Shown here: piece after piece, positions 1-59,717 of the stretch
Layout of the letters: each line of letters opens with the position of its first letter
Position numbering within the stretch: position 1 is the first letter of the stretch
Assembly (NCBI GenBank): GCA_028286615.1
Contig: JAQBRG010000004.1
Location: forward strand, 111,867 to 175,866
Length of the DNA stretch: 64,000 nt
Reading direction: 5' to 3'
Source of the DNA: Parcubacteria group bacterium
Lineage (GTDB): Bacteria > Patescibacteriota > Minisyncoccia > Phycocordibacterales > Phycocordibacteraceae
Position numbers and translations under genes: made by a program
Notes under the pieces: model-generated
Told to the model about the DNA's origin: nothing
Database searches by the model: none
Seen by the model: only the letters and a program-made list of their open reading frames with translations

Positions 1-434
1 CCGACATAAACCCTGTTGCGGTTGAGAATACAAATATTAACTTCAAGAAATTCAACCTTTCGAATGCGGTGGCTGTTGTGTCGGATGTATTTTCTAATGT
101 ACCCAAGAAGAAGTACGACTCAATAATCTTTAATCTTCCGTACCATGACGGGGTGCCTGCAAATGATCTGGAGAAAGGTGTTATTGATGCTGGCTATACA
201 GCAATGATCCAATTCTTTGCGCAGGCAAAACCTTTTCTCGCTGAGGATGGAAAGATGTATATAGGATTCTCTCAATCGGGAAATATTCAGAAGTTCATGG
301 AGACGCTGGAGGAAAATCACATTCAGATTGAAGATATGGAAGAAAAGAATTCGTGGGACCAGCCAGGGTACACAGGTTCTGATTTCCACTACAACTGTCA
401 GGTATATACGTGTTCCTTCAAGACAGCTGCATAA
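1..434 (+). CDS. Class I SAM-dependent methyltransferase, RsmC-like (16S rRNA m2G family) C-terminal fragment. The ORF runs open to the window start (5'-partial).
   Basis: Open frame from position 3 with no upstream stop. The motif VFSNV..YDSIIFNLPYHDG matches the RsmC/RsmD-type catalytic NPPF/NPPY motif IV and its flanks. Confidence 0.6.
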   Translation, partial: DINPVAVENTNINFKKFNLSNAVAVVSDVFSNVPKKKYDSIIFNLPYHDGVPANDLEKGVIDAGYTAMIQFFAQAKPFLAEDGKMYIGFSQSGNIQKFMETLEENHIQIEDMEEKNSWDQPGYTGSDFHYNCQVYTCSFKTAA

Positions 435-2209
435 ATCCCGTGAAGAACCCCTCTCGCATTGAGTTGGTTGATTTCGAGTCTGTAAAGGACATTCTTAAAA
501 ATGTTTCTGCAGATAATTCTGGATACCACTCTATTCCTACAGGTAATGTAAAAGCTCTAGAAGCTTTTCTCCTCAAGAAGAAGGGAAACATAACCAGAGT
601 AGAGTATGCGAAAGGGGAAGATGTAGTGCAAAAAGGAGTCGTTACTTTTAAGTCTTTGAAGAACAACACAGAGTTCTCCTATGCGCAGGTGCCGCTCGGC
701 ATCGTCCTAAAAGGAAGTCTCGTTGTTCTTAAGAACGGAAGAGGAACAAAGACTCTTTCAGAGGGGGACTTTCTAGGCCTCTTTGAAACAAGTGATTGGT
801 TGCTTACAAAACATACGCGTCACATAGGGGATTGGACGCTCGTAGCAGATACCGATACGAAAGTAGCGTTCTTCGACAAGAGCCTTCTTTCTGAAAGTAA
901 CCCAGAGGCAGAAGGTTTTAGGGACTATCTAATAGAGCTAGCTCGGGCAGATCACGTCCCGCAGCCTATTAGCACGTTGCCGCTTCTAGATTGGATCGCT
1001 GCACACACTACGCGCAAACGCCTGGATGATTGCGCTGTAGTAGTTCATACACACCTATTACCAAATAGTTTCCCTTTCTTTCGTCACCTCGCTCACTTGG
1101 TTGGTCCCGGTCGTATCTTTATCTTAGAGAAACCGTACTCAACTATTCGTTCAGTCTTCAATGATCTGGTGAGGTCTGGATATGACGTGACGCAGGTTCG
1201 TATGGAGCAAGATATGCCCTACGAGTTTGCTACACAGAAGAGTACAGAGATCTTATGGCGAAAGGTTGTTCAACTTCAGAAGAAACAAGGCTTCAAGAAA
1301 ATACTTGTAGTAGATGATGGAGGAGATCTGTGGCTGTCTATTCCATGGCAAGAGCTTAATGGAGTGGAGATAGTGGGCGTTGAACAAACTCAACGGGGCA
1401 TAGCTCGTATAGAAGGCGGAGGTGTAAGGACTCCACCCATAGTGAGTGTTGCGTCTTCAGGGATAAAGAAGTTAGTTGAATCTGAATTCATAGGCATCTC
1501 GGTTGTTAAAAAACTGAAGGAAGTCGGGGCCCTTGATGCTGCAAAGCAAATAGGAATACTTGGCGTGGGTAGCATAGGCGCTGCTGTAGAACGAGCGCTT
1601 GTCGCTGAAGGACGCACGGTTATTTGTTATGACCCTGCGTATCACTCGTCTACTTTGAAGCCAGGTAATGCCATCAGTTCAATAGACGTTCTTTTGAATA
1701 AGAGCGATCTCATTATCGGAACTGTCGGCGATGATTCCGTAATCGGCACAGCGTTAGAGCGTGTTTCAGGAGATAAGGTTTTTGCAAGCGCATCGTCAGC
1801 AGACATAGAGTTCGGATCGCTACTCAAGCTTGCAGAACCCTCGTTGGATATCTTTGGTACAAGGACAGTGCAGGTACATAAAGACTTTCGTATACAGATC
1901 CTAAACGGAGGTTACCCAATCAACTTTGACCGCATAAAGGACTCAACTCCCGACGAAGATATCGTTCTAACACGCTGCCTCCTCTACATAGGAGCTATGC
2001 AGGCCGCACATCTTCTTTCAGAACATATACAGAAGCCTGGACTCTATGATCTAGACAAGGTCTCGCAGCAACATCTCCTAAAGCGTTGGATTGAATATAA
2101 ACGCCAGCTTGGACAGAAACATCACGTGAAAGACGAAGATGTGGCTAAGATTCTCGCATATAGTTCGCTAAAGGACGCCATGAGGACACCTAGTGTCTGG
2201 GAGGAGTAG
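410..2209 (+). CDS. 599-aa protein with an N-terminal cNMP-binding-like region and a C-terminal adenosylhomocysteinase-like Rossmann NAD-binding domain
   Basis: Long ORF in the right orientation. It carries VVDDGGD and GVGSIG (GxGxxG) motifs, and an SDLIIGTVG...SADIEF segment resembling the AdoHcyase NAD domain. The N-terminal GDFLGLFE...TLVADTDTKVAFFDK segment is weakly similar to cNMP-binding proteins. Confidence 0.5.
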   Translation: MFLQDSCINPVKNPSRIELVDFESVKDILKNVSADNSGYHSIPTGNVKALEAFLLKKKGNITRVEYAKGEDVVQKGVVTFKSLKNNTEFSYAQVPLGIVLKGSLVVLKNGRGTKTLSEGDFLGLFETSDWLLTKHTRHIGDWTLVADTDTKVAFFDKSLLSESNPEAEGFRDYLIELARADHVPQPISTLPLLDWIAAHTTRKRLDDCAVVVHTHLLPNSFPFFRHLAHLVGPGRIFILEKPYSTIRSVFNDLVRSGYDVTQVRMEQDMPYEFATQKSTEILWRKVVQLQKKQGFKKILVVDDGGDLWLSIPWQELNGVEIVGVEQTQRGIARIEGGGVRTPPIVSVASSGIKKLVESEFIGISVVKKLKEVGALDAAKQIGILGVGSIGAAVERALVAEGRTVICYDPAYHSSTLKPGNAISSIDVLLNKSDLIIGTVGDDSVIGTALERVSGDKVFASASSADIEFGSLLKLAEPSLDIFGTRTVQVHKDFRIQILNGGYPINFDRIKDSTPDEDIVLTRCLLYIGAMQAAHLLSEHIQKPGLYDLDKVSQQHLLKRWIEYKRQLGQKHHVKDEDVAKILAYSSLKDAMRTPSVWEE

Positions 2210-3498: not shown

Positions 3499-3993
3499 CT
3501 ATTCTTCTAATGGATGAGGGAACCAGAAAGGATTAATAGATAATCTTTTGGCTTTATCCGTAGATAGAAGCTTCTGGCGTTCTCCATTTCGAGACTGCAT
3601 CTTAACCAGGCTCCCCTTTGCGTGTCTGATGCACCCAGATGTAAATCGCTGCTGTTGCTTGATGAAGTAGTAGGCAGCAGCTTGAGCATGAAGAGCGAGC
3701 TGCTCCTCTGTTTCGGCCAGCTCGATGTTGCAAACGTGAAAGTAGTTAGTCCAGACGCCGGCTTTTGGGAGAAGGTGAACAACGAAGTTCCCACCATCTT
3801 CGCCACCCGGGCAGTGCCGGAAGTCCCACGCTTCGTAGGGAAGTTCTTCATTTGCGAGCAGGAGCTCGTTCATGAAAACCTCTACGAACAGAAATGCGGT
3901 TGGCATAGCCCGACTCTGATCGATTGTGTCGGGTTCGATAAACCACTTGTCGTCTTGGCTATAAGTAATCGAGGTCATGATTCGCCCTTTCAA
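3499..3993 (-). CDS. Hypothetical protein. The likely true start is the internal Met MTSITYS at 3978.
   Basis: ORF of 164 aa whose 3' end abuts the bidirectional terminator. No recognisable domain. Confidence 0.45.
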   Translation of the reverse strand: MKGRIMTSITYSQDDKWFIEPDTIDQSRAMPTAFLFVEVFMNELLLANEELPYEAWDFRHCPGGEDGGNFVVHLLPKAGVWTNYFHVCNIELAETEEQLALHAQAAAYYFIKQQQRFTSGCIRHAKGSLVKMQSRNGERQKLLSTDKAKRLSINPFWFPHPLEE

Positions 3994-4084
3994 GGTGCAT
4001 TGTTCCTATCAGTCGCCGAACGATTTCAGCGCCTGAATAAGAGGGAGAAGCATGCTTCTCCCAAGTTCTTGTCAGTCCGGACAC

Positions 4085-4486
4085 CTACTCCCTAGGTTGG
4101 GGATGCAAGCTCCATGCCGCAGCAACCAGTTCGTCAGGAGTCGGGCCATTCAGAAGACCAAAGATATCGAGCCCTGCTTCCTCTTTGTATTGACTAAAGA
4201 GCACCACGCCCATCCCTCCGTCAGCCCTAGCGTTCGAGCTCCCTTCCCCAATCATCTTACCGAGAGTGGCAATAGAGTTCTTGCAGCAGGAACAGACGCC
4301 GAAGAGAAGAATTTCGGGACGCTCTTCCAGCGGGCTCACCATTCTTGCGCCGACAGCTTCAAAGGCTGCACGCACATCAGCGGGAATAGTCTTACCAGAC
4401 TGGTGAGAGTAGTAGCCGACACGGGTCTTACGACCAACCATGAAGTTCATTCGAGTGCCCCTCCTTAGGGCATTGGTGCAAGGCAC
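4085..4486 (-). CDS. Hypothetical protein
   Basis: ORF of 133 aa on the same strand as the neighbouring ORF. Its start region is divergent from the TrmB-like gene. No recognisable domain. Confidence 0.4.
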   Translation of the reverse strand: MPCTNALRRGTRMNFMVGRKTRVGYYSHQSGKTIPADVRAAFEAVGARMVSPLEERPEILLFGVCSCCKNSIATLGKMIGEGSSNARADGGMGVVLFSQYKEEAGLDIFGLLNGPTPDELVAAAWSLHPQPRE

Positions 4487-4603
4487 CGTTTAAATGGAAG
4501 TTTCAATTTGACTCTGGTGAGAAGTATGTCATAAGTATCAAAATAGTCAAGTAATGTCGGACATGTGTTGACAAGTCTTCGACAACAAATTAGGCTGTAT
4601 CTA

Positions 4604-5362
4604 ATGGATGAAAAACTCCTAGAACCGCTGAATCTTAATGAAAGCGAGATAGCCGTATACCAGGCCGTGCTTCGAAGTGGAGCCATCGCGCCGGCAGACC
4701 TTGCTAAGGCTTCGGGAATTAAACGCACAACCGCCTACAGCGTTGCTCGTTCCTTGGTAGATAAAGGACTGCTTTCGGAAGATGCCACTCGCAGACCTCG
4801 AGTATTTACCCCCTCAACTCCTGAGCAGGTGTCCGGCCTTATTGAAACGGAAAGGCGACAACTTGTCTTAAAAGAGGAATCTCTTAATAAGGTTGCTGCA
4901 GAGCTTGCTAAGCTCTCAGCTAAAACGACCTACCCTGTTCCAACGGTACGTTTTATAGAGGAAGCGAAGATTGATTCGTTTCTCAGGCAACAGACACCAA
5001 TATGGGATAAGAATCTTAAGGAGACTGAGCCAACATGGTGGGGCTTCCAAGACCATACATTTGTAGAGCACTTTGCTAAATGGATTAGCTGGTATTGGAA
5101 CCAGTCTTCTAAAGATGTGAATCTCAAACTTCTATCAAACAGGGCACCAGCCGAGGTTGCTTTTGGAGATAAGTACGCAGATCAGCGACATATTAAGTTC
5201 TGGGGTGAAGCAAATAACTTTATGTCTACTACATGGATCATAGGAGACTACATAGTGATGATTAATACACGAGCCAAACCTTTCTATCTTGTAGAGATAC
5301 ACGACAAGCTTATGGCACACGATCAACGAGAAGTATTTAGGAATCTATGGGATTTGGTGTAG
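4604..5362 (+). CDS. TrmB-family transcriptional regulator (N-terminal winged HTH)
   Basis: The LNLNESEIAVYQAVLRSGAIAPADLAKASGIKRTTAYSVARSLVDKGLL segment is a typical TrmB HTH, and there is a TrmB-like C-terminal domain. ATG at 4604; an alternative in-frame GTG lies at 4565. Confidence 0.7.
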   Translation: MDEKLLEPLNLNESEIAVYQAVLRSGAIAPADLAKASGIKRTTAYSVARSLVDKGLLSEDATRRPRVFTPSTPEQVSGLIETERRQLVLKEESLNKVAAELAKLSAKTTYPVPTVRFIEEAKIDSFLRQQTPIWDKNLKETEPTWWGFQDHTFVEHFAKWISWYWNQSSKDVNLKLLSNRAPAEVAFGDKYADQRHIKFWGEANNFMSTTWIIGDYIVMINTRAKPFYLVEIHDKLMAHDQREVFRNLWDLV

Positions 5363-5372
5363 GCTAGCGAAT

Positions 5373-5933
5373 ATGAAAATCGGCATCATGGGCGCGCAGG
5401 GAAGCTTCTCGGAAGAAGCAGCAAGGAAGTATGTAGAGAAAGAGTCGTTAGAGAATGTAGACATTGAATACCTCATATCAGCTGAACGCGTACTCTCAGC
5501 TCTTGAGGCAGGAGAGATAGACCTCGGAGTATTCCCAATAGAAAACAGCAACGGCGGCATTGTTATAGAAGCCGTGCACGCCATGGCAGCACACCGCTTC
5601 AAGGTTAAGAAGATGTTTGAGATTGACGTGCACCAGAACCTGCTCGCTATGAAGGGAGTAAATCCAGAACAGATAACACTTATAACCTCGCACGACCAAG
5701 CACTGAAGCAATGTCGTATGTATTTAAAACGTAAGTGGCCAGGCGTAGATATTCAGGAATACGCAGACACCGCCAAGGCAGCACAGGATCTTGCTTCCGG
5801 AGCACTTCCTCCAACAACTGCTGTTATTGCTTCACGCGCTGCAGCAGACTTATACAACCTAGAGATTCTCGAAGAGAGTATTCAGGATCTGAAATTTAAC
5901 TACACGAGTTTCGTTGTTGCAGAGAAGATCTAG
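5373..5933 (+). CDS. pheA: Prephenate dehydratase (PDT catalytic domain only, no ACT domain)
   Basis: The motifs IGIMGAQGSFSEEAA, GVFPIENSNGG, ALKQC and NYTSFVV correspond to conserved PDT motifs. Confidence 0.75.
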   Translation: MKIGIMGAQGSFSEEAARKYVEKESLENVDIEYLISAERVLSALEAGEIDLGVFPIENSNGGIVIEAVHAMAAHRFKVKKMFEIDVHQNLLAMKGVNPEQITLITSHDQALKQCRMYLKRKWPGVDIQEYADTAKAAQDLASGALPPTTAVIASRAAADLYNLEILEESIQDLKFNYTSFVVAEKI

Positions 5934-6713: not shown

Positions 6714-6746
6714 TTGACTTACAAGTATACTTTAAAGTATACTTGT
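6714..6746 (+). promoter_or_regulatory. Sigma70-like promoter (TTGACT-18-TATACT) overlapped by a perfect 26-bp palindrome; predicted antitoxin operator
   Basis: TTGACT lies at 6714-6719 and TATACT at 6738-6743. The palindrome ACAAGTATACTTTAAAGTATACTTGT spans 6721-6746 and ends 3 nt before the antitoxin ATG at 6750. Confidence 0.6.
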
Positions 6747-6749
6747 AAC

Positions 6750-6995
6750 ATGACTCCTCAAATCATTGGCATTAAAGAATTACAGAACAAATTAAAGTAC
6801 GTAGCTGATGCAACGCTGCTTGGTGTTTCTTTTACTGTAGTGCGTGGTTCTAAGCCAGTTTTTCGCATCGAGCCAATTCTTCCTACTAAACGAACAGGTA
6901 CATTAGAGGACGCATTTAAGGCCTTGGCTTTTAAAGGAGAAAAGGATTTATCTCAGCGAATTGACGACATCGTATATGGCGGGAAACTTCATTGA
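6750..6995 (+). CDS. Phd/YefM-type antitoxin
   Basis: The N-terminus QIIGIKELQNKLKYVADATLLGVSFTVVRGSKPVFRIEP has the typical Phd/YefM fold signature. It overlaps the downstream PIN toxin gene by 20 nt. Confidence 0.6.
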   Translation: MTPQIIGIKELQNKLKYVADATLLGVSFTVVRGSKPVFRIEPILPTKRTGTLEDAFKALAFKGEKDLSQRIDDIVYGGKLH

Positions 6996-7371
6996 TACAA
7001 GCGTTCTCATTTCATTCTTCAATGAAAAAGACTCGCTGCATGAGCGAGCTCAGTTAATTTTAAGAGAGATCCAAAAACCCCTGCTTGTGCATGAATACGT
7101 AGTCTTAGAAACCGCTACTGTGCTTATGAATCGAGTTGGAAAATCCTCGGCAGATGAGTTTATGCGAATAACGCTGGGAAATGCAGACTTTGAACTCCAC
7201 TTGAGCTCAGAGGTAGGATTCCTTGCTTCAGCAGAAACTTTTGTTCAGAATCAAAACAAACTTTCTTTTGTAGACACGGCGTTGCTCTCTTTGTCAGGAA
7301 CTAGTCAAATTATTACCTTTGACGAAGAACTTAACCGTGCAATTAAGAAGCGTAAGGAAAAGAAAGATTAG
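6976..7371 (+). CDS. vapC: PIN-domain toxin (VapC-like ribonuclease)
   Basis: The N-terminus FIDTSVLI carries the first acidic residue, SFVDTALLSL is a later Asp motif, and the size is about 130 aa. It is paired with the upstream antitoxin. Confidence 0.7.
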   Translation: MAGNFIDTSVLISFFNEKDSLHERAQLILREIQKPLLVHEYVVLETATVLMNRVGKSSADEFMRITLGNADFELHLSSEVGFLASAETFVQNQNKLSFVDTALLSLSGTSQIITFDEELNRAIKKRKEKKD

Positions 7372-13894: not shown

Positions 13895-14347
13895 ATGAAC
13901 GAACGCATGCTTGGTCTTCCGAACGGCCGCAACCTGAGTAGCGAGCAGCGCGTTCGGCGCTCACTCATCGACCAGCTGCTTCGCTGGGGGATGCTCGGCG
14001 CGGTCGGGGTCTGTCTGGTGTTGATGGTCCACGCCGAATACAGATATCACCACCAACCCCTCCAACATTTGGCCATCAGTCACGATGGAAATCTGATCGA
14101 TGTGCCGGCAGGCCCTTACCAAACTGGCATCTATCGCGCGTTTCAAATCGCCAAAGACGCCAAGCGGCCGGTCTGTTTCGGTGGTGACATCCGTTACTTC
14201 TGCAACAAGGACTACGCACTATTCCAGCATCTCTGGGCCTATCATGACGCAATCTCAGTCAATGTTCCTGTCCGCGCCGGCGAGGAATTCACCCGCGACC
14301 GGCACGGCGTCTGGCACGATGGCCCACCCTCGCGCCTTCCGAAGTAG
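13895..14347 (+). CDS. Hypothetical membrane-anchored protein (island gene)
   Basis: 150 aa with an N-terminal TM helix (GMLGAVGVCLVLMV). Codon usage is high-GC. Confidence 0.5.
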   Translation: MNERMLGLPNGRNLSSEQRVRRSLIDQLLRWGMLGAVGVCLVLMVHAEYRYHHQPLQHLAISHDGNLIDVPAGPYQTGIYRAFQIAKDAKRPVCFGGDIRYFCNKDYALFQHLWAYHDAISVNVPVRAGEEFTRDRHGVWHDGPPSRLPK

Positions 14348-14507
14348 CCACCCGCGGGTCGTGTTTTGAGACGAAGCGCCCACCGAACCTAACTCGGTGG
14401 GCGTCTTCTTATTTACATACCGTGAGATATTTGACAAATACAGTATTTACCCTATAATCTACGCAGCACCATTCACATCCACAAGACTCAATCGAAGGGG
14501 TACGAAT

Positions 14508-15581
14508 ATGAGTTCCTTGAGAGTTAATCGTCGTTTTTTGCTTGCCACTGCACTCGGTTCGACTGCAGTGGTTGTTGGCGGCGCGGCTCTCATGTTGAGA
14601 AACCACGCCCCGACTCTGGAACAACCGAGCGCCAGCTCTGAATACCCGATGGGGAAACTCGCTGGTCGGAACATCGGGAGCCTCTACGCCATCTACATCG
14701 GCTACGAGGGCAAGATCCCGTCCAGACTTAAGATCAACTGGCCGCAACGCATGGAATACATGTGGACCGCTAAGGTCACCAACTCGCATAACAACCGAGT
14801 GGTGCGCCAGACGCGAGACAAGTTGCTGCCTGAGTTTGCGCACGGGGAACCCAAGCGCATGTCGCTCGCCGCCTATCTCAAGGTGGCGGACGGCCAAGCC
14901 GATCTTCTGCATAAGAAGCTCGACTGGGACAAGGTCGGCAGCATGTACTTCACCCGTCAGGGGAAGGTCAACAAGCGCAAGCAACGCCTCCTCAAGAATG
15001 TCGCAGGGCAGGTTCGGGGGAACGAGTTGATCGCCTACGCTCTGACCGAGCTCATGCCCGGTCAGAATGACGGCGCCTTCAACCGCGACTTCCTCGACTT
15101 CCTGCTTCGGCAAGGAGGAAGGGAATTCGTTGAACGCATTCCTGCGCTCTACGACGACCGCACGTCGTTCGGCACCTACCAATTCACCTCGTTCGCTCTC
15201 TACGACGTTCCGGGTGAAAGGCGCGGCGCTTCGAATGTGAACCAGGCGTTGCCTCCGATGTATCGGATTCCCGGGAGCGTGATGCTTCTCCGGGAGAACG
15301 ATCACTTCAAGGCGGCCTATCTGTTCGCCGTGCACAACCTGGCGGTTGCTATCGCCAGACTGGACGACAAGCAGGTGCACACCTTCGAACGCAATCGTCG
15401 GCAGAAGGTGGATTCCATCGTGGAGTTCATCGCCGTCGCGCACCACGGCCCTGCCGCCGCTTACAATGCTTGCGGACGCTGGCTCGACAACAAAGCCAAG
15501 CAACCCTTCAGGAACTCCTGCTCGGGTCGCTATCGCACCTACGCAAACAAGACGGCGAATAACTACAAAGCTTTGGCGTAA
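14508..15581 (+). CDS. Hypothetical secreted protein with a twin-arginine (Tat) signal peptide
   Basis: The start MSSLRVNRRFLLATALGSTAVVVGGAA has an RRFLL Tat motif followed by a hydrophobic region. Weak AYNAC and G-x-Y-Q motifs are reminiscent of lysozyme-like transglycosylases, but this is not established. Confidence 0.55.
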   Translation: MSSLRVNRRFLLATALGSTAVVVGGAALMLRNHAPTLEQPSASSEYPMGKLAGRNIGSLYAIYIGYEGKIPSRLKINWPQRMEYMWTAKVTNSHNNRVVRQTRDKLLPEFAHGEPKRMSLAAYLKVADGQADLLHKKLDWDKVGSMYFTRQGKVNKRKQRLLKNVAGQVRGNELIAYALTELMPGQNDGAFNRDFLDFLLRQGGREFVERIPALYDDRTSFGTYQFTSFALYDVPGERRGASNVNQALPPMYRIPGSVMLLRENDHFKAAYLFAVHNLAVAIARLDDKQVHTFERNRRQKVDSIVEFIAVAHHGPAAAYNACGRWLDNKAKQPFRNSCSGRYRTYANKTANNYKALA

Positions 15582-15597
15582 ATGCCACAAACTAAAA

Positions 15598-15636
15598 ACA
15601 CCCGAGTTGGTCCTGCCAATTCGGGTGTCTTTTTAT
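15598..15636. terminator. Bidirectional intrinsic terminator
   Basis: Hairpin ACACCCGA-...-TCGGGTGT with T-tracts on both strands. Confidence 0.7.
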
Positions 15637-15653
15637 ATACACTAGTCTCTATT

Positions 15654-15944
15654 TCATGCAGCCTCTCTAATTTCCTCCCCTGGAGCGATGGAGTTGAGGA
15701 TTTCAAGCGCTTCTTCTGTAGACTTTCCCTCACACGAAAGTACCTTTTCGGGATCTGCGGCGAATAGCGTACGAAGTTTGTCGTGCGCCTCGTTAGAATC
15801 ATGCGCGCTGATTACGCCGGAAGCGCCTGCATCTTTGAGTAGTACGTAATAAAGAGGATCGCCGCTAGTAAGTCGGACAGACTCGGGGGTGGGTTTAGCC
15901 TCCGAAGAAGGACCTTTAGCAAAGACATTTTCGTGTGAGTTCAT
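15654..15944 (-). CDS. Hypothetical small protein
   Basis: ORF of 96 aa ending at the bidirectional terminator. Low complexity. Confidence 0.3.
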   Translation of the reverse strand: MNSHENVFAKGPSSEAKPTPESVRLTSGDPLYYVLLKDAGASGVISAHDSNEAHDKLRTLFAADPEKVLSCEGKSTEEALEILNSIAPGEEIREAA

Positions 15945-16006
15945 ATATATAAATTGTACTGCATGTTTCCGTGTCTATAAACAGGAGGCAGGAGAGGGTT
16001 ATTGCC

Positions 16007-16034
16007 TTGACGATATGAGTTTTCTTAGTATAGT
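16007..16034 (+). promoter_or_regulatory. Sigma70-like promoter TTGACG-16-TATAGT
   Basis: Good -35 and -10 hexamers about 60 bp upstream of the 16094 ORF. A GAGGAGGG Shine-Dalgarno site precedes the ATG. Confidence 0.5.
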
Positions 16035-16093
16035 TGCGACAGTACCAATAGATTTTTGACTTCAACCTACTGCTCCCTGAGGAGGGCTAACGT

Positions 16094-16882
16094 ATGAACC
16101 GTACGCAATGGACTACCAGGCACGTCGTTATCGGCGTGGTTGGCGCAGGCGCGCTTCTCGTCGCAGGAATCATGCTGTTCGGCCCGAAGGCTTCGGCCAG
16201 GGTCGACGTGGTCGAGGGGATCAAACCCGTCTCCACGCAGATGCTCGGCATCGCCGGCACCATCGACGACATGGCCAAGCTTCCGGTGGCGGAACGTGGC
16301 GCCTATCTCGAGCGCAACTGGCCGCATCTCTCGGAGGACATGGTTTTCTTCCTCCAGCGGCGCGGCAAGATCGCTCCGGGTGTCGAACCCACGAAGGTCG
16401 AGTTCTACTTCGGCTCGATGGACAAGGTGCTCGCCGAGAATGGCGACGGCGGCCGGCAACGTGGCTACTTCGCGAACCAACTGGTCGCCGTGGTGACAGT
16501 TCCGGGCCAAAAGGATCCCATCAAGGTCCTGGTCCAATGCACCAACGGCACCTTCGCGCTCGTCGAAGACCTGCGCAAGCTGCAGGCCGTCGGCGAGCAC
16601 ACTCCGCAAATGCGCTTCACTCTGGGCGCAGGCGAGGGGTTCACGCGTCACCTCGACTACCCGGCGGCGATCCAGCTCGCTCAAGATCTGGGCAAGCCGC
16701 TCTTCCGCACCGGGCGTATGACTCCGGAGAACCGGATCACTCCGGATCAAGCGCGGGCCCTCGAGAGCAGCCTGGACTGGGTGCAGGTTACCGTCGGCAA
16801 CGTCTTCCAAGGCGACAAGGTCGACCTGATCGCCGGCACCTACACTCCGGTCAACGGCCAGGTGATCCGCTTCCATCACTAA
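16094..16882 (+). CDS. Hypothetical membrane-anchored protein (island gene)
   Basis: 262 aa with an N-terminal TM helix (VVIGVVGAGALLVAGIMLF) and a strong Shine-Dalgarno site. GC is very high (about 67 % in a 60-nt sample). Confidence 0.55.
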   Translation: MNRTQWTTRHVVIGVVGAGALLVAGIMLFGPKASARVDVVEGIKPVSTQMLGIAGTIDDMAKLPVAERGAYLERNWPHLSEDMVFFLQRRGKIAPGVEPTKVEFYFGSMDKVLAENGDGGRQRGYFANQLVAVVTVPGQKDPIKVLVQCTNGTFALVEDLRKLQAVGEHTPQMRFTLGAGEGFTRHLDYPAAIQLAQDLGKPLFRTGRMTPENRITPDQARALESSLDWVQVTVGNVFQGDKVDLIAGTYTPVNGQVIRFHH

Positions 16883-16912
16883 GCTTCAAGACCTCGATTT
16901 TTTCGAGGCAAC

Positions 16913-16947
16913 GCTCGTCGATTCATTTCGATGAGCGTTTTTCTTTT
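16913..16947 (+). terminator. Intrinsic terminator at the right edge of the high-GC island
   Basis: 9-bp stem (with one G-U pair) GCTCGTCGA-TTCATT-TCGATGAGC followed by GTTTTTCTTTT. Confidence 0.65.
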
Positions 16948-17014
16948 CCCCGCACACACAAATACGCGCACATGCCTTTGGTACGCGCGCGTTATACTTT
17001 GAATAAACAACGGC

Positions 17015-18766
17015 ATGCAAGTATCTGAAAGCGAACTAAAAGAATTCATTCTCGATTCGGGACTCGTGTCTCGAAAGGATGTTGAAGATGCCGATGACGA
17101 GGCAAAGAAAAAGAAACAGTCTATTGGAGACATTCTTGTATCTCGCGGTACTCTTTCTCCTGACGCGCTCAGGCGTATTAAGGCATACGTGCTCGGTATT
17201 CCTTTCGTTAACCTGAAGGACAAGAAGATTCCTCTAGATGTTCTTTCCCTTATCCCTGAACCAATTGCTCGCACGCACAGTATCGTTGCGTTTAAGAAGG
17301 AAGGAGACAATCTTGAGGTTGCCATGCTTGATACCGAAGATCTTCCGGCTATAGACTCGGTACGAAAGACTACAGGACTTAAGATCCTTGCTCGCCTGAC
17401 GGATGACGAATCTCTCAAACACATTCTTCTTCAGTACCAGAAGTCTCTCAAGGAAGAATTTGGAGACCTCATAACAACAGAAGCAGGGAAGATTAACGTT
17501 ATCAAAGACGAAGAAGGGCAGGAGATTTCAGGAGACGATCTTAAGAAGATGGCAGAAGACCTGCCAATTGTGCGTATTGTTGATACGTTGCTGCGCCACG
17601 CCATTATCCAGAAGGCTTCCGACATTCATGTGGAGCATATGGAGAACGAGGTGTTGGTTCGCTACCGCATAGACGGTGTGCTACATGACGCCATGACTCT
17701 GCCACGCTCTGCAGCCGCCGGTATAACCGCACGTATAAAGGTGCTCGCGAACCTGAAGCTCGACGAGAAGCGTCTTCCGCAGGATGGACGATTCAAGATG
17801 GAGACTGAAGCCGACAAGGTCTCATTCCGTGTATCGCTTCTCCCAACCTATTACGGAGAGAAGATCGTTATGCGTCTCCTTCGCGAAACAGGAGAGGGCT
17901 TTACGCTTGATGTCCTTGGCTTCCATGGAAGTTCTCTTGAGCGCATACACCAGTCCATGAAGCAGACGACGGGTATTCTTCTCATCTCAGGACCTACTGG
18001 TTCCGGAAAGACCACAACGCTCTACACCATTCTCGATATTCTTAATACGCCCGACGTTAACATTTCAACGGTTGAAGATCCTATCGAGTACCAGATGAAG
18101 CGCGTTAACCAAACACAGGTTAATCCTGCTATTGGTTTTACATTCGCTAACGGTCTCCGTGCACTCCTTCGCCAGGACCCGAACATCATCATGGTTGGAG
18201 AGATTCGAGATAGCGAGACCGCATCGCTCGCTATTAACGCTGCTCTTACGGGACACCTCGTGCTCTCAACTATTCACACCAACTCAGCAGCCGGTGCTAT
18301 TCCTCGCCTTATGGATATGGGTGTTGAACCGTTCCTTCTCGTCTCAACCCTTCGTATGGTTATGGGACAGCGCCTTGTGCGCAGACTTTGCGATGGACAT
18401 GAGGAATATACGCTTGATAAGACAGAGCGTTCCAAGGTAGCGAGTGAAGATAAGTTTGAAGCAGCTCTTGCAGCTCTTGCTGAAGAGAAGCTTGTTAAGG
18501 CCGGAACAAAGCTAGACAATCTTCCTTTCCATAAAGCGATGCCTTCTGCTGAGTGTGAAGACGGATACGCAGGACGTATTGGTATCCATGAGATTCTTAC
18601 CGTTTCTCCTGCTATTCGCGACCTTATTCTGCACAACGCTCCACCGGATGCTATTGAAGCGCAGGCTCGCAAAGAGAATATGCTTACAATGCTTGAAGAC
18701 GGTATTTATAAAGCATCACGTGGCATTACAAGTCTTGAAGAGGTGTTGAGGGCAGTTTCGGAATAA
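17015..18766 (+). CDS. pilB: Type IV pilus assembly ATPase (GspE/PilB family)
   Basis: Walker A motif LISGPTGSGKTTTLYT, a GspE N-terminal domain, an Asp box, Walker B, and the tetracysteine-like region CDGHEEY...C. Confidence 0.9.
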   Translation: MQVSESELKEFILDSGLVSRKDVEDADDEAKKKKQSIGDILVSRGTLSPDALRRIKAYVLGIPFVNLKDKKIPLDVLSLIPEPIARTHSIVAFKKEGDNLEVAMLDTEDLPAIDSVRKTTGLKILARLTDDESLKHILLQYQKSLKEEFGDLITTEAGKINVIKDEEGQEISGDDLKKMAEDLPIVRIVDTLLRHAIIQKASDIHVEHMENEVLVRYRIDGVLHDAMTLPRSAAAGITARIKVLANLKLDEKRLPQDGRFKMETEADKVSFRVSLLPTYYGEKIVMRLLRETGEGFTLDVLGFHGSSLERIHQSMKQTTGILLISGPTGSGKTTTLYTILDILNTPDVNISTVEDPIEYQMKRVNQTQVNPAIGFTFANGLRALLRQDPNIIMVGEIRDSETASLAINAALTGHLVLSTIHTNSAAGAIPRLMDMGVEPFLLVSTLRMVMGQRLVRRLCDGHEEYTLDKTERSKVASEDKFEAALAALAEEKLVKAGTKLDNLPFHKAMPSAECEDGYAGRIGIHEILTVSPAIRDLILHNAPPDAIEAQARKENMLTMLEDGIYKASRGITSLEEVLRAVSE

Positions 18767-18840: not shown

Positions 18841-19230
18841 ATGCCCGTAGAGTTCATGCCCGCCCTGAACAGGTGGATACGCAGATTCTTGTTCGCCATT
18901 GTTGTTGGAGTCGCGGTATTCATCTATATGCTGCGGTTTATGCCTGATGATTTTTTCGCTCCTACCCAGGGCAACGAGATGGTTACGGTCGTCATGGTGC
19001 CTGTTTTTGCCGCAGCGTTCGCGTTTTTGGGATATCGAAGCCCTGTTGTAACTGGCGTGGGCTGCTTGCTCTTCGCGGGAATATTTTGGGTACTTGCCTG
19101 GACTACTCCTTCGCCAGCAACAAACGAGTTTCAGGTTGCGCATGTGATAACGCTGATGTGCATTGCGGGCCCCATCTGCGCAGGTGCGTGGTTGGTCAAG
19201 GCCGGCTGGAAACTCTCTCGTGGTCGGTAA
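18841..19230 (+). CDS. Hypothetical polytopic membrane protein inserted between pilB and pilC
   Basis: 129 aa with 3-4 predicted TM helices and elevated GC. It is followed by its own terminator. Confidence 0.45.
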   Translation: MPVEFMPALNRWIRRFLFAIVVGVAVFIYMLRFMPDDFFAPTQGNEMVTVVMVPVFAAAFAFLGYRSPVVTGVGCLLFAGIFWVLAWTTPSPATNEFQVAHVITLMCIAGPICAGAWLVKAGWKLSRGR

Positions 19231-19252
19231 TTGCCATTACGTGCGCACCTTA

Positions 19253-19286
19253 ACCCGCAGCTCTTCAAACGGCTGCGGGTTTTTGC
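19253..19286 (+). terminator. Intrinsic terminator between the membrane ORF and pilC
   Basis: Hairpin ACCCGCAGC-...-GCTGCGGGT followed by TTTTGC. Confidence 0.6.
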
Positions 19287-19303
19287 ATGCTACGATTATC
19301 CCA

Positions 19304-20518
19304 ATGAAGTTCCGCGTTGTTGTTAAGAGTGCAGAAGGCAAAGAAGAGAAGCGTCTCATGGATGCTCCTAATCGTTTTGCGGTATATAGCGAGATAGAGA
19401 AGGAAGGCTCCTCGGTCGTGTCTGTTGAAGAGGGGGCTGGAAGTCTTCTTCCTAAATGGGCCACCATTTCTATTGGTGGAGGAGGCGTTAAGACTGACGA
19501 GAAGATAACTTTCACAAAGAACCTCTCGGCCATGCTTGGAGCCGGACTTACGCTTTCTCGTGCACTCTCAGTTATTCAGCGACAGGCAACGAACAAGAAC
19601 CTGAAGCGCGTAACAAATACGCTTGAGAACGAGGTTAAGAAGGGAAGCGCATTCCATGAGGCGCTCGCAATGCATCCGCACATTTTCTCAAAGCTTTTCA
19701 TAGCGATGACAAAAGCGGGCGAGGAATCAGGAACACTTGCTGACGCGCTTAAGGTTGTAGCAAAGCAAATGGAACGCTCTAACAATCTTCAAAAGAAGGT
19801 TAAGGGAGCCATGATCTACCCATCTATTATTCTCGTAGCCATTCTGGTTATCGGAGTGCTTATGATGATCTTCGTGGTGCCAACACTTTCAGCAACGTTC
19901 AAATCGCTTAACGTAGACCTTCCTAAGGCAACTCAGATAATTGTTGCGATGTCTGACTTCATGGCGAACAATGCCATTTTGGTACTCGTACTTCTAGCCG
20001 CAGGTATTGGAGGATTCATTCTTTTCCTCAAGACCAAGATAGGAGGGACTATAACGCTCGCTATTTCGCTTCGCATTCCTGTTATTGGAGAGCTGGTACG
20101 CGAGACTATGAGCGCACGCGCAGCGCGCGCTATGTCCTCGCTTCTTTCTTCAGGAGTTGAAATGCTCTCAGCTCTCTCAATTGCAGGAGAGGTTGTTGGA
20201 GAGAATACGTTTGGAAAGGTTATTAAAGAAGCAGAAGAACGTGTACGTAAAGGAGAATCTCTATCTGCAGCGTTTGAAGCGCACAACAAGCTCTATCCTA
20301 TTTTCGTATCTGAGATGATTACGGTTGGAGAGGAGACAGGAAAGGTTGCAGACATGCTTGGGCAGGTTGCCGAGTATTATGAAAGCGATGTGGAGGAGCG
20401 AACAAAAGACCTCTCAACTATTATCGAACCGGTTCTCATGCTCGTTATCGGAGGATTCGTAGGAATCTTCGCTATCTCAATGATTTCTCCTATCTACTCG
20501 TTGTCTGACAAGATTTAG
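19304..20518 (+). CDS. pilC: Type IV pilus assembly platform protein (GspF/PilC family)
   Basis: Two GspF repeats with TM segments. It follows pilB as expected. The start was taken at MKFRVV. Confidence 0.85.
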   Translation: MKFRVVVKSAEGKEEKRLMDAPNRFAVYSEIEKEGSSVVSVEEGAGSLLPKWATISIGGGGVKTDEKITFTKNLSAMLGAGLTLSRALSVIQRQATNKNLKRVTNTLENEVKKGSAFHEALAMHPHIFSKLFIAMTKAGEESGTLADALKVVAKQMERSNNLQKKVKGAMIYPSIILVAILVIGVLMMIFVVPTLSATFKSLNVDLPKATQIIVAMSDFMANNAILVLVLLAAGIGGFILFLKTKIGGTITLAISLRIPVIGELVRETMSARAARAMSSLLSSGVEMLSALSIAGEVVGENTFGKVIKEAEERVRKGESLSAAFEAHNKLYPIFVSEMITVGEETGKVADMLGQVAEYYESDVEERTKDLSTIIEPVLMLVIGGFVGIFAISMISPIYSLSDKI

Positions 20519-57842: not shown

Positions 57843-58190
57843 ATGTCCCGTTCCCTCAAGAAAGGCCCATACGTCGACTTCAAGCTCCTGAAGAAAGTTC
57901 AGGACAAAAAGCCTGCATCTGCAGGGGTTATTAAGACGTGGGCACGTAACAGCCAGATCGCTCCTGAGTTCGTTGGATTCACATTCGGTGTACACAACGG
58001 CAAGCAGCACCTGGAAGTTCTTGTGGCTGAGGAGATGGTAGGGCACCGCCTGGGAGAATTCTCTCCAACTAAGAAGTTCGTTCGTCACGGAGGAAAGATG
58101 CAGAAGCAGCTTGAGCAGAAGAAGCAGCAGGCAGAAATAACCGCAGCTAAGGCTGCAAAGGCAGCTCCAGCAGCGCCTAAGAAGAAATAA
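57843..58190 (+). CDS. rpsS: 30S ribosomal protein S19, with an Ala/Lys-rich C-terminal extension
   Basis: [12 protein letters not shown]...[18 protein letters not shown] is an S19 signature. Confidence 0.9.
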
Positions 58191-58191
58191 T

Positions 58192-58608
58192 ATGGCTTCT
58201 ACTGGAACACACCGACCGCCAGCTAAGGCTCGCAAAGAAGAAGCGAAGAAGCAGATTCGTGCTTCTATCGACACCTACAACCAGGCCCCTCGCAAGGTTC
58301 GTCTTGTGACCGACATGATCAAGGGCAAGCGCGTTGCTGACGCTATCGCTGCTCTCTCATTCCTTCCTAAGCGCGCATCTCTTCCAATCAAGAAGCTCAT
58401 CGAGTCAGCTGCAGCTAACGCAAAGCAGAAGGGAGAAGACGTAGACATGCTCCGCGTTGAGGATATTCGTGTAGACTCAGCAGGTATGCTCGTTCGATTC
58501 ATGCCTCGCGCTATGGGTCGTGCAGCTCCTATCCGCAAGCGTCGCAGCCAGGTGGTTATCACCCTCGGTATCGATCCTAAAGCCGTAGCTAAAGCTGCAA
58601 AGGCATAA
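58192..58608 (+). CDS. rplV: 50S ribosomal protein L22
   Basis: PRKVRLVTDMIKGKRVADAIAALSFLPKRAS is an L22 signature. Confidence 0.9.
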   Translation: MASTGTHRPPAKARKEEAKKQIRASIDTYNQAPRKVRLVTDMIKGKRVADAIAALSFLPKRASLPIKKLIESAAANAKQKGEDVDMLRVEDIRVDSAGMLVRFMPRAMGRAAPIRKRRSQVVITLGIDPKAVAKAAKA

Positions 58609-58614
58609 TTTTAT

Positions 58615-59295
58615 ATGACACACACCGTACATCCTTACGCACACCGCCTTGGCATCATCCGTGATTGGAAGAGCCGTTGGTTTGCTATAGACAAGAAGTC
58701 ATACCGCGAGAATCTTGCGGTTGACGCTGCTATCCGTGGCTTCCTCAAGAAGCGTCTTAAGGGTATGCACGTTTCAGATACTGAAATCGAGCGTTCTGCT
58801 AACGAAGTACGCGTTATTCTCCACACTGCTCGCCCAGGTCTCGTAATCGGTCGCTCAGGTGAGAACGCAACCAAGCTCCGCACCGAGCTCAACAAGGTTG
58901 TTCGCAAGATCGCTCCAGCACACGGACGTTCAGTGAAGCTCGACATCATGGAAATCCGCCAGCCTGAGACTTCAGCTGCGGTTGTTGGCCAGATGGTTGC
59001 CGAAGGACTTGAGAAGCGTATGCCGTTCCGCCGCGTTCTTAAGGGAACAGTTGAGAAGGTCATGGGTGTTCGCGAGGTTATCGGAATCCGCATCGTGGTT
59101 TCCGGTCGTCTTGGTGGCGCTGACATGAGCCGCACCGAGCAGATCAAGCGCGGACGTATTCCTCTTCAGACTTTCCGTGCAAATATCGATTACGCGCAAG
59201 TCGAAGCGCTTCTTCCGTACGGAATCATCGGTATCAAGGTTTGGATCTACCTAGGTGAGACCTTCGAGTCCAGCACGCCAGCTACCACAAAATAA
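58615..59295 (+). CDS. rpsC: 30S ribosomal protein S3
   Basis: The KH domain VIGRSGENATKL and the C-terminal domain GRLGGADMSRTEQIKRGRIPLQTFRANIDY are S3 signatures. Confidence 0.9.
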   Translation: MTHTVHPYAHRLGIIRDWKSRWFAIDKKSYRENLAVDAAIRGFLKKRLKGMHVSDTEIERSANEVRVILHTARPGLVIGRSGENATKLRTELNKVVRKIAPAHGRSVKLDIMEIRQPETSAAVVGQMVAEGLEKRMPFRRVLKGTVEKVMGVREVIGIRIVVSGRLGGADMSRTEQIKRGRIPLQTFRANIDYAQVEALLPYGIIGIKVWIYLGETFESSTPATTK

Positions 59296-59297
59296 TT

Positions 59298-59717
59298 ATG
59301 TTGTTTCCTAAAAAAGTTAAACACCGCAAGTGGCAGACAGGACGTAAGTCCCCTGAGAAACTCGCACGTCCTGAGACTCGTGGTATCACGGTAGCCTTCG
59401 GTTCGTACGGTCTTAAGGCCACAAGTCCTTCACGCGTTACTTCTAACCAGATTGAGGCCGCTCGTAAGGTTCTTACACGCGTAACCGGAAAAGGTGGTAA
59501 GCTCTGGATTCGCATCTTCCCAGACCGTCCAATCACCAACAAGCCTGCTGAGGTAGGCATGGGTAAGGGTAAGGGAGATCCTAAGCACTTCGTGTTCGAG
59601 GTACGTCCAGGACGTGTGCTCTTCGAGCTTGATGGTGTGGACGATGCTAAGGCACGGGACGCACTTCGCCGCGCTGGTGGAAAGCTTCCGCTTAAGACTA
59701 CGATAGTCACCCGCTAG
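59298..59717 (+). CDS. rplP: 50S ribosomal protein L16
   Basis: MLFPKKVKHRKWQTGR...GMGKGKGDPKHFVFEVRPGRVLFEL is an L16 signature. Confidence 0.9.
   Translation: MLFPKKVKHRKWQTGRKSPEKLARPETRGITVAFGSYGLKATSPSRVTSNQIEAARKVLTRVTGKGGKLWIRIFPDRPITNKPAEVGMGKGKGDPKHFVFEVRPGRVLFELDGVDDAKARDALRRAGGKLPLKTTIVTR

Follow-up and report, generated by a model that had tools for sequence, protein, structure and literature searches.

S-adenosylhomocysteine (SAH) hydrolase (SAHH) is among the most conserved enzymes known, and to our knowledge there are few characterised offshoots of its NAD-dependent chemistry, in which the substrate is oxidised, undergoes elimination and is finally re-reduced. Known SAHH-like proteins with an N-terminal regulatory extension are AHCYL1/IRBIT and AHCYL2, whose extensions are disordered PEST-type regions in eukaryotes. 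Here, we describe a gene of a Parcubacteria group bacterium (assembly GCA_028286615.1, contig JAQBRG010000004.1) that lies at 410..2209 on the plus strand of a 64,000-nucleotide stretch (positions 111,867 to 175,866 of the contig). We call this whole stretch the window, and coordinates are given within it unless stated otherwise. The product of this gene almost certainly combines an N-terminal domain with the cyclic-nucleotide-binding (CNB) fold and a core with the SAHH fold. We found no published work on this SAHH-like family, nor any description in the literature of a CNB domain attached to an SAHH-fold enzyme. The combination of the two folds, and the three- to six-gene system that surrounds it, thus appear to be undescribed.

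The protein resembles SAHH, as represented by human AHCY (1LI4) and the Thermotoga maritima enzyme (3X2F), in its two-domain fold, its DDGGD motif, its GxGxxG loop and the acidic residue after the second beta strand. It differs from SAHH in being only 16-21% identical to it and below all curated thresholds, in having its own signature loop, NGG(F/Y)PxNFD, and in the N-terminal 'AExEMPGLM' segment and C-terminal Lys/Tyr tail of SAHH, which cannot be aligned to the family. It further adds the N-terminal CNB fold, a coupling to a specific methyltransferase and, in other organisms, an importer of the energy-coupling factor (ECF) type. AHCYL1/IRBIT and AHCYL2 (3mtg, 3gvp) provide the best PDB profile matches (3e-11) and likewise carry an N-terminal regulatory addition on an SAHH-fold core. 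However, the added part is here a folded CNB domain instead of a disordered extension, and whereas AHCYL proteins are ~50% identical to AHCY, the present family is a distant sister group with a pattern of conservation that favours catalysis.

The reading frame at 410..2209, which opens with GTG and encodes 599 aa, is a genuine conserved gene rather than an open reading frame (ORF) that arose by chance. A homologue search with its product returned one identical protein (P0001, from a Parcubacteria-group metagenome-assembled genome, MAG) and 130 homologues; for the 120 matches listed, the E-values ranged from 0 to 1e-123. The family alignment of 72 sequences has a mean column identity of 48%, with invariant residues in both halves, and AlphaFold2 models the full-length protein with confidence (pLDDT 92.9, pTM 0.92). 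The high pTM of this model also indicates that the two halves would pack against each other in a defined manner. The true start is probably GTG 440 rather than GTG 410, since a start at 440 yields a protein of 589 aa with the same N-terminal length as its close relatives, which measure 584-590 aa, begin with M-x8-VDL and do not overlap the methyltransferase gene. Starting at 410, the gene would overlap the upstream methyltransferase gene by 25 nt; starting at 440, it would begin 5 nt past the stop codon of that gene (432-434). With either arrangement, the two genes probably belong to one operon.

In the AlphaFold2 model, the C-terminal two thirds of the protein (aa ~186-599) form a complete SAHH fold. 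When the full-length model was compared with the PDB by Foldseek, all of the top 50 matches were SAH hydrolases (E down to 8e-16), with ~410-440 aligned columns, 16-21% identity and target-normalised template-modelling (TM) scores of ~0.6-0.73. Sequence searches of the PDB led to the same fold. With the single sequence, the best match was SAHH (6.5e-5), in an alignment that runs through the regions of DDGGD and EETTTG and through the Rossmann loop; with the family profile, SAHH and SAHH-like chains were matched at 3e-11 over both domains (profile positions 196-459). The core of the AdoHcyase superfamily that had been proposed in the preliminary description is therefore well founded, and so is its view that the protein is not a canonical SahH: the Pfam and NCBIfam models for AdoHcyase fail to recognise it, and the positions of E156, D190, N191 and H301 are substituted. 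The four motifs quoted there are all present in the ORF, namely VVDDGGD (aa 300-306, nt 1307-1327), GVGSIG (aa 385-390, nt 1562-1579), SDLIIGTVG (aa 432-440, nt 1703-1729) and SADIEF (aa 463-468, nt 1796-1813). Neither Pfam nor NCBIfam nor the PDB searches placed the protein in a well-characterised family such as ornithine cyclodeaminase.

The first part of the substrate-binding (catalytic) domain occupies nt 965..1525 of the plus strand (aa ~186-372) and contains H215, DDGGD (302-306), EQTQRG (325-330), K353 and E357. It is followed at nt 1526..1900 (+; aa ~373-497) by the NAD-binding Rossmann domain, which aligns to the NAD domain of SAHH and carries GVGSIG, Y407-D408, GTVG (437-440) and SASSADIEF (460-468); the boundaries of both domains are approximate. 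The C-terminal segment (nt 1901..2206, +; aa 498-599) opens with the superfamily signature N-G-G-(Y/F)-P-x-N-F-D at aa 499-507 (nt 1904-1930). In a superfamily alignment of 20 Patescibacteria-type and 41 distant members, residues N499, G500, G501, P503, N505, F506 and D507 are invariant in 61 of 61 sequences, the motif having also served as the retrieval pattern for the superfamily in our scan of reference genomes.

The active site was compared with that of human AHCY, using for the numbering a sequence identical to 1li4_A at 432 of 432 positions and an hhalign profile alignment for the residue map. Human H55, D131, T157 and K186 correspond to H215, D303, T327 and K353, and D190 to E357, a conservative change. 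E156, T159, N191 and H301 correspond to Q326, R329, S358 and S463. The glycines of GxGxxG are G385, G387 and G390, and E243, the acidic residue at the end of the second beta strand, becomes D408. Of the catalytic Lys, Asp and His residues of SahH, whose conservation the preliminary description had proposed to check, K186, D131 and H55 are kept as K353, D303 and H215, and D190 has its counterpart in E357. In the 61 aligned members, H215, Y243, D302/D303, G304, E325-Q326-T327, G330, K353, E357, the glycine loop, D408, S460, S463, E467 and the signature from N499 to D507 are invariant or nearly so; the counterparts of E156, D190 and H301 are fixed superfamily-wide as Gln, Glu and Ser, and that of N191 is usually Ser. 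The residues with which SAHH holds the ribose and abstracts a proton are thus retained. Because catalytic and replacement residues alike are invariant across divergent members, the conservation is what one would expect of a working enzyme whose specificity or 5'-side chemistry has changed, and not of a decayed pseudo-enzyme. We consider it likely, judging from these residues, that the protein is a catalytically active NAD enzyme, and the Asp that follows the second beta strand (D408) suggests NAD, not NADP, as the cofactor.

The N-terminal CNB-fold domain spans nt 458..952 of the plus strand (aa ~17-181) and consists of N-terminal helices, a beta-barrel, a helix resembling that of the phosphate-binding cassette (PBC) and a C-helix. 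Modelled alone by AlphaFold2 (pLDDT 92), this module retrieved CNB domains for all of its top 50 Foldseek matches in the PDB (E 7e-7 to 1e-5, query-normalised TM 0.45-0.59), including those of PKG, PKA-R, CNG/HCN channels, SLC9C1, Pycsar PycTIR and the nucleoside-binding PKA-R of Trypanosoma. Its sequence is far less telling. The best PDB matches of the N-terminal profile are all CNB domains, but with E>=0.015; Pfam PF00027 cNMP_binding stays below threshold on the window protein (15 bits vs 27.5), and it matches eight of 26 family members at E<=10 (best 1e-4), with cupin families similarly strong. A cupin was rejected as the identity of this module, the Pfam evidence for it being as weak as that for cNMP_binding while Foldseek returned CNB domains alone. 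The cNMP- or effector-binding-like N-terminus anticipated in the preliminary description is thus sub-threshold by sequence and recovered by fold.

The domain shares with known CNB domains (PKA-R, PKG, CAP/CRP, CNG/HCN, PycTIR, 6h4g) a helix at the position of the PBC, and its 'G-x-F-E ... R' spacing resembles the Gly-Glu...Arg of the cassette, in which Glu serves the ribose 2'-OH and Arg the cyclic phosphate. The PBC-like segment, GDFLGLFETSDWLLTKHTRHIGDW, lies at nt 764..835 (+; aa 119-142) and reads G119-D-F-L-G-L-F-E126...R137-x-I-G-D-W142; it appears to sit at the position of the cassette, in a putative register. Within the Patescibacteria family, G123, F125, E126, R137, G140 and W142 are invariant (72-sequence alignment), and 'GLFE' is kept in both fused and separately encoded CNB-like modules. 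We found this module solely beside or fused to SAHH-like genes, and a search for other architectures that contain it returned two fragments only. Many Proteobacteria encode it as the N-terminal part of a separate protein of 395-507 aa, directly beside the SAHH-like gene; the remaining ~300 C-terminal aa of these proteins have no Pfam or PDB similarity.

Directly upstream, the window opens with the 3' part of the partner methyltransferase gene (1..434, +; the last ~144 codons). The full gene encodes 241 aa and begins ~291 nt before the window, at 3797-4519 of the larger locus that we fetched around it (L001; L numbers denote fetched loci and P numbers homologous proteins). Like HemK/PrmC, Mtq2 and RsmC/RsmD, the protein has a PF05175 MTS domain (9.8e-7 on the part in the window, 3.7e-19 on the full length), a GxGxG loop for S-adenosylmethionine (SAM), here 'LELGPGCG', and an NPPY-type motif IV, here the variant 'FNLPYH', both of which are kept in all orthologues. 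The orthologues share VMSP(K/A)YDW, LE(L/I)GxGxG, (A/V)D(I/V)NP and N(L/A)PYH. Unlike these known amino-methyltransferases, the partner stays below every NCBIfam equivalog cut-off (the best models being of the HemK2/MTQ2, PrmC and RsmC types), has a distinct N-terminus, 'H-x-T-T-x-P-Y-L ... V-M-S-P-K-Y-D-W', and is fused to the CNB-SAHH-like protein in several lineages.

The arrangement of the partners was derived from iterated hidden Markov models run on 83 fetched loci, from Pfam scans and from protein sequences. The methyltransferase gene is adjacent and upstream in L001, L005, L006 and L007, the methyltransferase is fused N-terminally in P0108, P0113, L022, L024 and P0129, and it is fused C-terminally in L020, L021, L023, L026, L031, L044, L047, L048, L052, P0123, P0133 and P0138. 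The link with a methyltransferase that the preliminary description had drawn from adjacency thus extends to fusions at either end in independent lineages. Since these fusions occur in both orders and across distant lineages, a genuine functional link between the methyltransferase and the CNB-SAHH-like protein is very likely. The constant element of the system is the SAHH-like core; the CNB-like module often accompanies it, and so, frequently but facultatively, does the methyltransferase. Two HD_assoc_2 proteins were encountered in these surveys, possibly by coincidence: one of CYTH+HD_assoc_2 composition near a CNB-SAHH-like gene (L002, 3204-5189) and one of HD+HD_assoc_2 composition near a stand-alone relative of the methyltransferase (L085, 5894-7210).

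The SAHH-like superfamily is large. A HMMER search that covered 1.84 billion representatives yielded 916 clusters (at 50% identity) with E<=1e-30, or 2273 when the limit was relaxed to E<=1e-10. Among the top matches, the CNB-fused form of ~590 aa accounts for about 25, most are stand-alone proteins of 400-470 aa, and some reach ~850 aa. The CNB-fused architecture comes to ~130 clusters when grouped at 90% identity, or ~25 representatives at 50%, and it was found in ~23 loci among GTDB species representatives, a scan that needed exact motif patterns and may undercount. This full-length form occurs in Parcubacteria, Moranbacteria, Berkelbacteria, Saccharibacteria and Pacebacteria. Relatives without the N-terminal module, at 25-35% identity, are spread over Proteobacteria (with genera such as Legionella and Bradyrhizobium), Woesearchaeota, Actinomycetes, Acidobacteria, Cyanobacteria, Verrucomicrobia and Bacteroidota. 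Neither Pfam nor NCBIfam holds a dedicated model for the superfamily, and its members are annotated as 'Adenosylhomocysteinase', 'hypothetical protein' or, by PGAP, 'NAD(P)-dependent oxidoreductase'. Together, these proteins represent a large uncharacterised sister family of the SAH hydrolases, with an active site that is conserved yet systematically altered. One subfamily, with K241/D465/R508/R522, holds every CNB- or methyltransferase-linked member; a second, with I241/Y306/K333/G508, has no partners. The variable pocket residues R329, R508, K354 and D306 separate these two subfamilies only and do not correlate with the presence of the methyltransferase.

Three contigs labelled as MAGs of 'Gammaproteobacteria' or 'Methylococcaceae' (L016, L017 and L022; two of ~5 kb, one of 27 kb) encode Patescibacteria-type proteins at 45-53% identity and are probably mis-binned Patescibacteria. 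MAGs of Woesearchaeota, which are DPANN archaea, carry SAHH-like genes as well (L038, L045 and L049). In L038 and L049 these genes have the same TrmB-like neighbour as Patescibacteria loci, which suggests inter-domain transfer between episymbiont lineages. A stand-alone member (WP_061363916.1, annotated as 'NAD(P)-dependent oxidoreductase') is encoded at 58056-59420 of the Legionella pneumophila plasmid NZ_CP015948.1 (L084); on conjugative Legionella plasmids, this gene adjoins a large response regulator gene and is surrounded by toxin-antitoxin genes. Genes for histidine kinases or response regulators are again neighbours in L034, L037, L050 and L055.

What could such a protein do? The explanation that we favour, although with somewhat less than even confidence, is that of a two-module enzyme, in which a ligand-binding CNB domain and an SAHH-fold core form a unit with the HemK/RsmC-type amino-methyltransferase and act on SAH or an adenosyl analogue. 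In this scheme, a tightly bound NAD+ would transiently oxidise the 3'-OH of a ribonucleoside-type ligand; K353 and E357, the counterparts of K186 and D190, would perform the deprotonation; D303 and H215, the counterparts of D131 and H55, would assist beta-elimination or exchange of the 5'-substituent; and the NADH formed would re-reduce the sugar at the end of the cycle. A plausible role for the CNB-like domain would be that of a ligand gate, which controls the catalytic core upon binding an effector that resembles a nucleoside or nucleotide. As substrate, the simplest candidate would be the SAH that the methyltransferase releases, or else a closely related adenosyl compound. The only metabolite obviously common to a SAM-dependent methyltransferase and an SAHH-fold enzyme is SAH, and the repeated fusion to such a methyltransferase makes it, or a close analogue, the most economical choice. 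Even so, SAH itself as the substrate is a doubtful proposition, to which we give roughly one third of our belief.

Several observations weigh against this reading. In the core, Glu156, Asn191 and His301, which belong to the ribose-, NAD- and water-activating set of SAHH, are replaced by Q326, S358 and S463. Pfam PF00670 (AdoHcyase_NAD) remains below its cut-off (12.3 bits vs 27, E 0.18), PF05221 gives no match, and neither does NCBIfam TIGR00936 (ahcY) at E<=1. From these changes and low scores, it follows that the 5'-side chemistry or the substrate may differ from that of SAH hydrolysis. The equivalents of the adenine-loop residues H353 and N346 could not be placed by sequence alignment: for the adenine/NAD loop (Asn346, Leu347, His353, Met358) and the Lys426/Tyr430 tail, three local profile alignments gave three differing, non-significant registers, and the NGGYPINFD loop could likewise not be matched by sequence to a specific SAHH loop. 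In the CNB-like domain, R137 is kept in the Patescibacteria type alone and lost in the separately encoded homologues; given this loss, the ligand would not necessarily be a cyclic phosphate or cyclic nucleotide. The partnership with the methyltransferase is also far from universal. More than half of the Patescibacteria-type loci (L002, L004, L008-L019) have no such methyltransferase gene within 6 kb, for example where the CNB-SAHH-like gene lies between map and adk in the ribosomal cluster (L002) or after uvrB (L004), and most of the superfamily in the 83 fetched loci lacks it too. A reciprocal search of metagenome contigs with the methyltransferase returned stand-alone relatives only, at <=42% identity and without an SAHH- or CNB-like neighbour, so this methyltransferase type is not exclusive to the system. 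Finally, in Proteobacteria, an ECF-type importer precedes the cassette, which points to an imported substrate and not to an internal by-product.

This last observation leads to the main alternative, which we regard as possible, though on balance rather unlikely, namely that the same architecture serves a substrate other than SAH, in a salvage or modification pathway for a nucleoside-like micronutrient. The compound would be imported by the ECF transporter in Proteobacteria and transiently oxidised with NAD, the methyltransferase would methylate the substrate or the product, and the Patescibacteria gene would be a minimal version of the pathway. In 11 loci with unrelated flanks, genes for ECF-S (CD3073 family, 1e-26), ECF-T, ECF-A, the CNB-like protein, the SAHH-like protein and, in some cases, the methyltransferase form a compact cassette. 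The fixed E156Q, D190E and H301S changes, together with the distinct signature loop, argue for altered specificity. The frequent occurrence of the SAHH-like core without any methyltransferase also favours this alternative, as does the presence of relatives in Legionella and Bradyrhizobium, genera that are expected to possess a canonical AhcY. However, no ECF genes lie beside the Patescibacteria-type genes in the loci examined, no riboswitch that could hint at the ECF ligand was found in the 11 ECF-type loci or in L001, no candidate substrate can be named, and a shared SAH explains the repeated fusion to a SAM-dependent methyltransferase more simply. It is tempting to go further and to suggest that these modules and the proteobacterial importer belong to an unrecognised widespread pathway, in which an adenine-nucleoside-like metabolite is taken up, sensed, transiently oxidised in the manner of SAHH and then N-methylated. 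We doubt this more than we believe it. Rather than a variant of the methyl cycle, such a pathway would be a new route for the salvage of a nucleoside or cofactor, or for signalling, and its CNB domain would sense a non-cyclic nucleoside ligand.

Alternatively, the protein could lack catalysis and serve as a sensor or regulator, in the manner of an IRBIT/AHCYL-like pseudo-enzyme. It would then bind NAD and/or SAH/SAM as well as a CNB ligand, and control the methyltransferase or transcription. The best PDB profile matches, 3gvp and 3mtg, are indeed catalytically inactive human AHCYL proteins, three active-site positions of SAHH are changed, CNB domains are classical sensor modules, and there is a recurrent association with TrmB-like winged-helix-turn-helix (wHTH) proteins, with one N-terminal fusion. 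Yet the Lys, Asp and His equivalents, as well as Q326, E357 and S463, are invariant in more than 60 very divergent members, and most superfamily members are stand-alone proteins of enzyme size without a partner to regulate. We therefore consider a purely regulatory role improbable.

It is more improbable still that the gene encodes the housekeeping AhcY of this organism with an extra domain. Some MAG annotations do read 'Adenosylhomocysteinase', the fold is that of SAHH, and no other SAHH, canonical or not, is encoded within the 64-kb window. However, the protein fails all curated AhcY models and shares no more than a fifth or so of its residues with SAHH structures (~16-21%), and its distribution is patchy, whereas a universal housekeeping enzyme would be far commoner.

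An ordinary NAD(P) enzyme of the D-2-hydroxyacid dehydrogenase type, with net redox chemistry, has very little to recommend it. The sole Pfam domain above cut-off is PF02826 (29.9 bits vs 25.1, 4.4e-7, aa 377-437), in line with the PGAP label 'NAD(P)-dependent oxidoreductase', but the match covers the 61 residues of the Rossmann beta-alpha-beta unit alone (positions 35-97 of a 178-position profile). In the PDB profile search, 2-hydroxyacid dehydrogenases are similarly confined to this ~60-residue unit (profile positions ~369-429). No dehydrogenase appears among the top 50 fold matches, and the DDGGD, E-x-T-x-x-G and K-x-x-x-(D/E) motifs are specific to SAHH. A plain 2-hydroxyacid dehydrogenase was thus rejected.

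A methylation-based anti-phage defence system resembling MADS, which comprises mad1-mad8 with kinase, nuclease and ATPase components and a predicted N6-methyltransferase, mad2 (bioRxiv 10.1101/2023.03.30.534895), is barely credible and was rejected: the patchy distribution, the relatives on conjugative Legionella plasmids and the PADLOC matches of the methyltransferase to mad2 (7e-21) and of the ECF ATPase of the proteobacterial cassettes to mad3 (1e-24) recall such a system, but what is matched are the generic MTS and ABC-ATPase domains, PADLOC recognises neither the CNB-like nor the SAHH-like protein, no other mad genes are present, the Patescibacteria genes lie among housekeeping genes, and no phage homologues were found.

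Since members of this large and unstudied family are time and again fused to one particular methyltransferase or encoded beside it, the gene probably marks a system for the handling of SAH or nucleosides that has yet to be described. With the CNB-fold module, the HemK-like methyltransferase and the ECF importer as recurrent partners of the family, this system is open to tests in Patescibacteria with their minimal genomes and in free-living Proteobacteria alike. If the enzyme hydrolyses SAH, as the two-module explanation that we favour would have it, it would provide a ligand-regulated relief of product inhibition tethered to the methyltransferase. If it does not, it would perform new nucleoside chemistry, possibly on a new micronutrient. 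Either outcome would correct labels, 'Adenosylhomocysteinase' and 'NAD(P)-dependent oxidoreductase', that are at present misleading or uninformative.

The system may have a dedicated regulator. A TrmB-like winged-helix protein of 265 aa (PF01978 TrmB, 9.5e-11) is encoded downstream at 4565..5362 (+), and the gene for a paralogue of ~250-265 aa lies beyond the window, upstream of the methyltransferase gene and in divergent orientation (L001 2931-3674, minus strand). TrmB-like proteins of this type recur beside the system in L001, L005, L006, L007, L022 and the Woesearchaeota loci L038 and L049; in L005-L007, L022, L038 and L049, the TrmB-like gene lies divergently upstream of it. The fusion mentioned above is in L024, where a wHTH domain precedes the methyltransferase, CNB and SAHH-like parts in a single protein.

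Elsewhere, the window encodes ordinary housekeeping functions of Patescibacteria, and genes of the methyl cycle are absent. The TrmB-like gene is followed directly by an ORF of 186 aa (5373-5933) that carries a prephenate dehydratase (PDT) domain only and is unusually short for PheA. At 6714-7371, two small ORFs of 93 and 136 aa overlap by 35 nt and are arranged like a type II antitoxin/toxin pair. The region 14000-18000 has a G+C content of 0.54-0.55, compared with 0.45-0.50 elsewhere, and contains long overlapping ORFs on both strands (14397-15581 on the plus strand and 14409-15590 on the minus strand; also 16067-17028); this G+C-rich stretch is situated just upstream of the type IV pilus genes PilB (17015-18766) and PilC (19163-20518).

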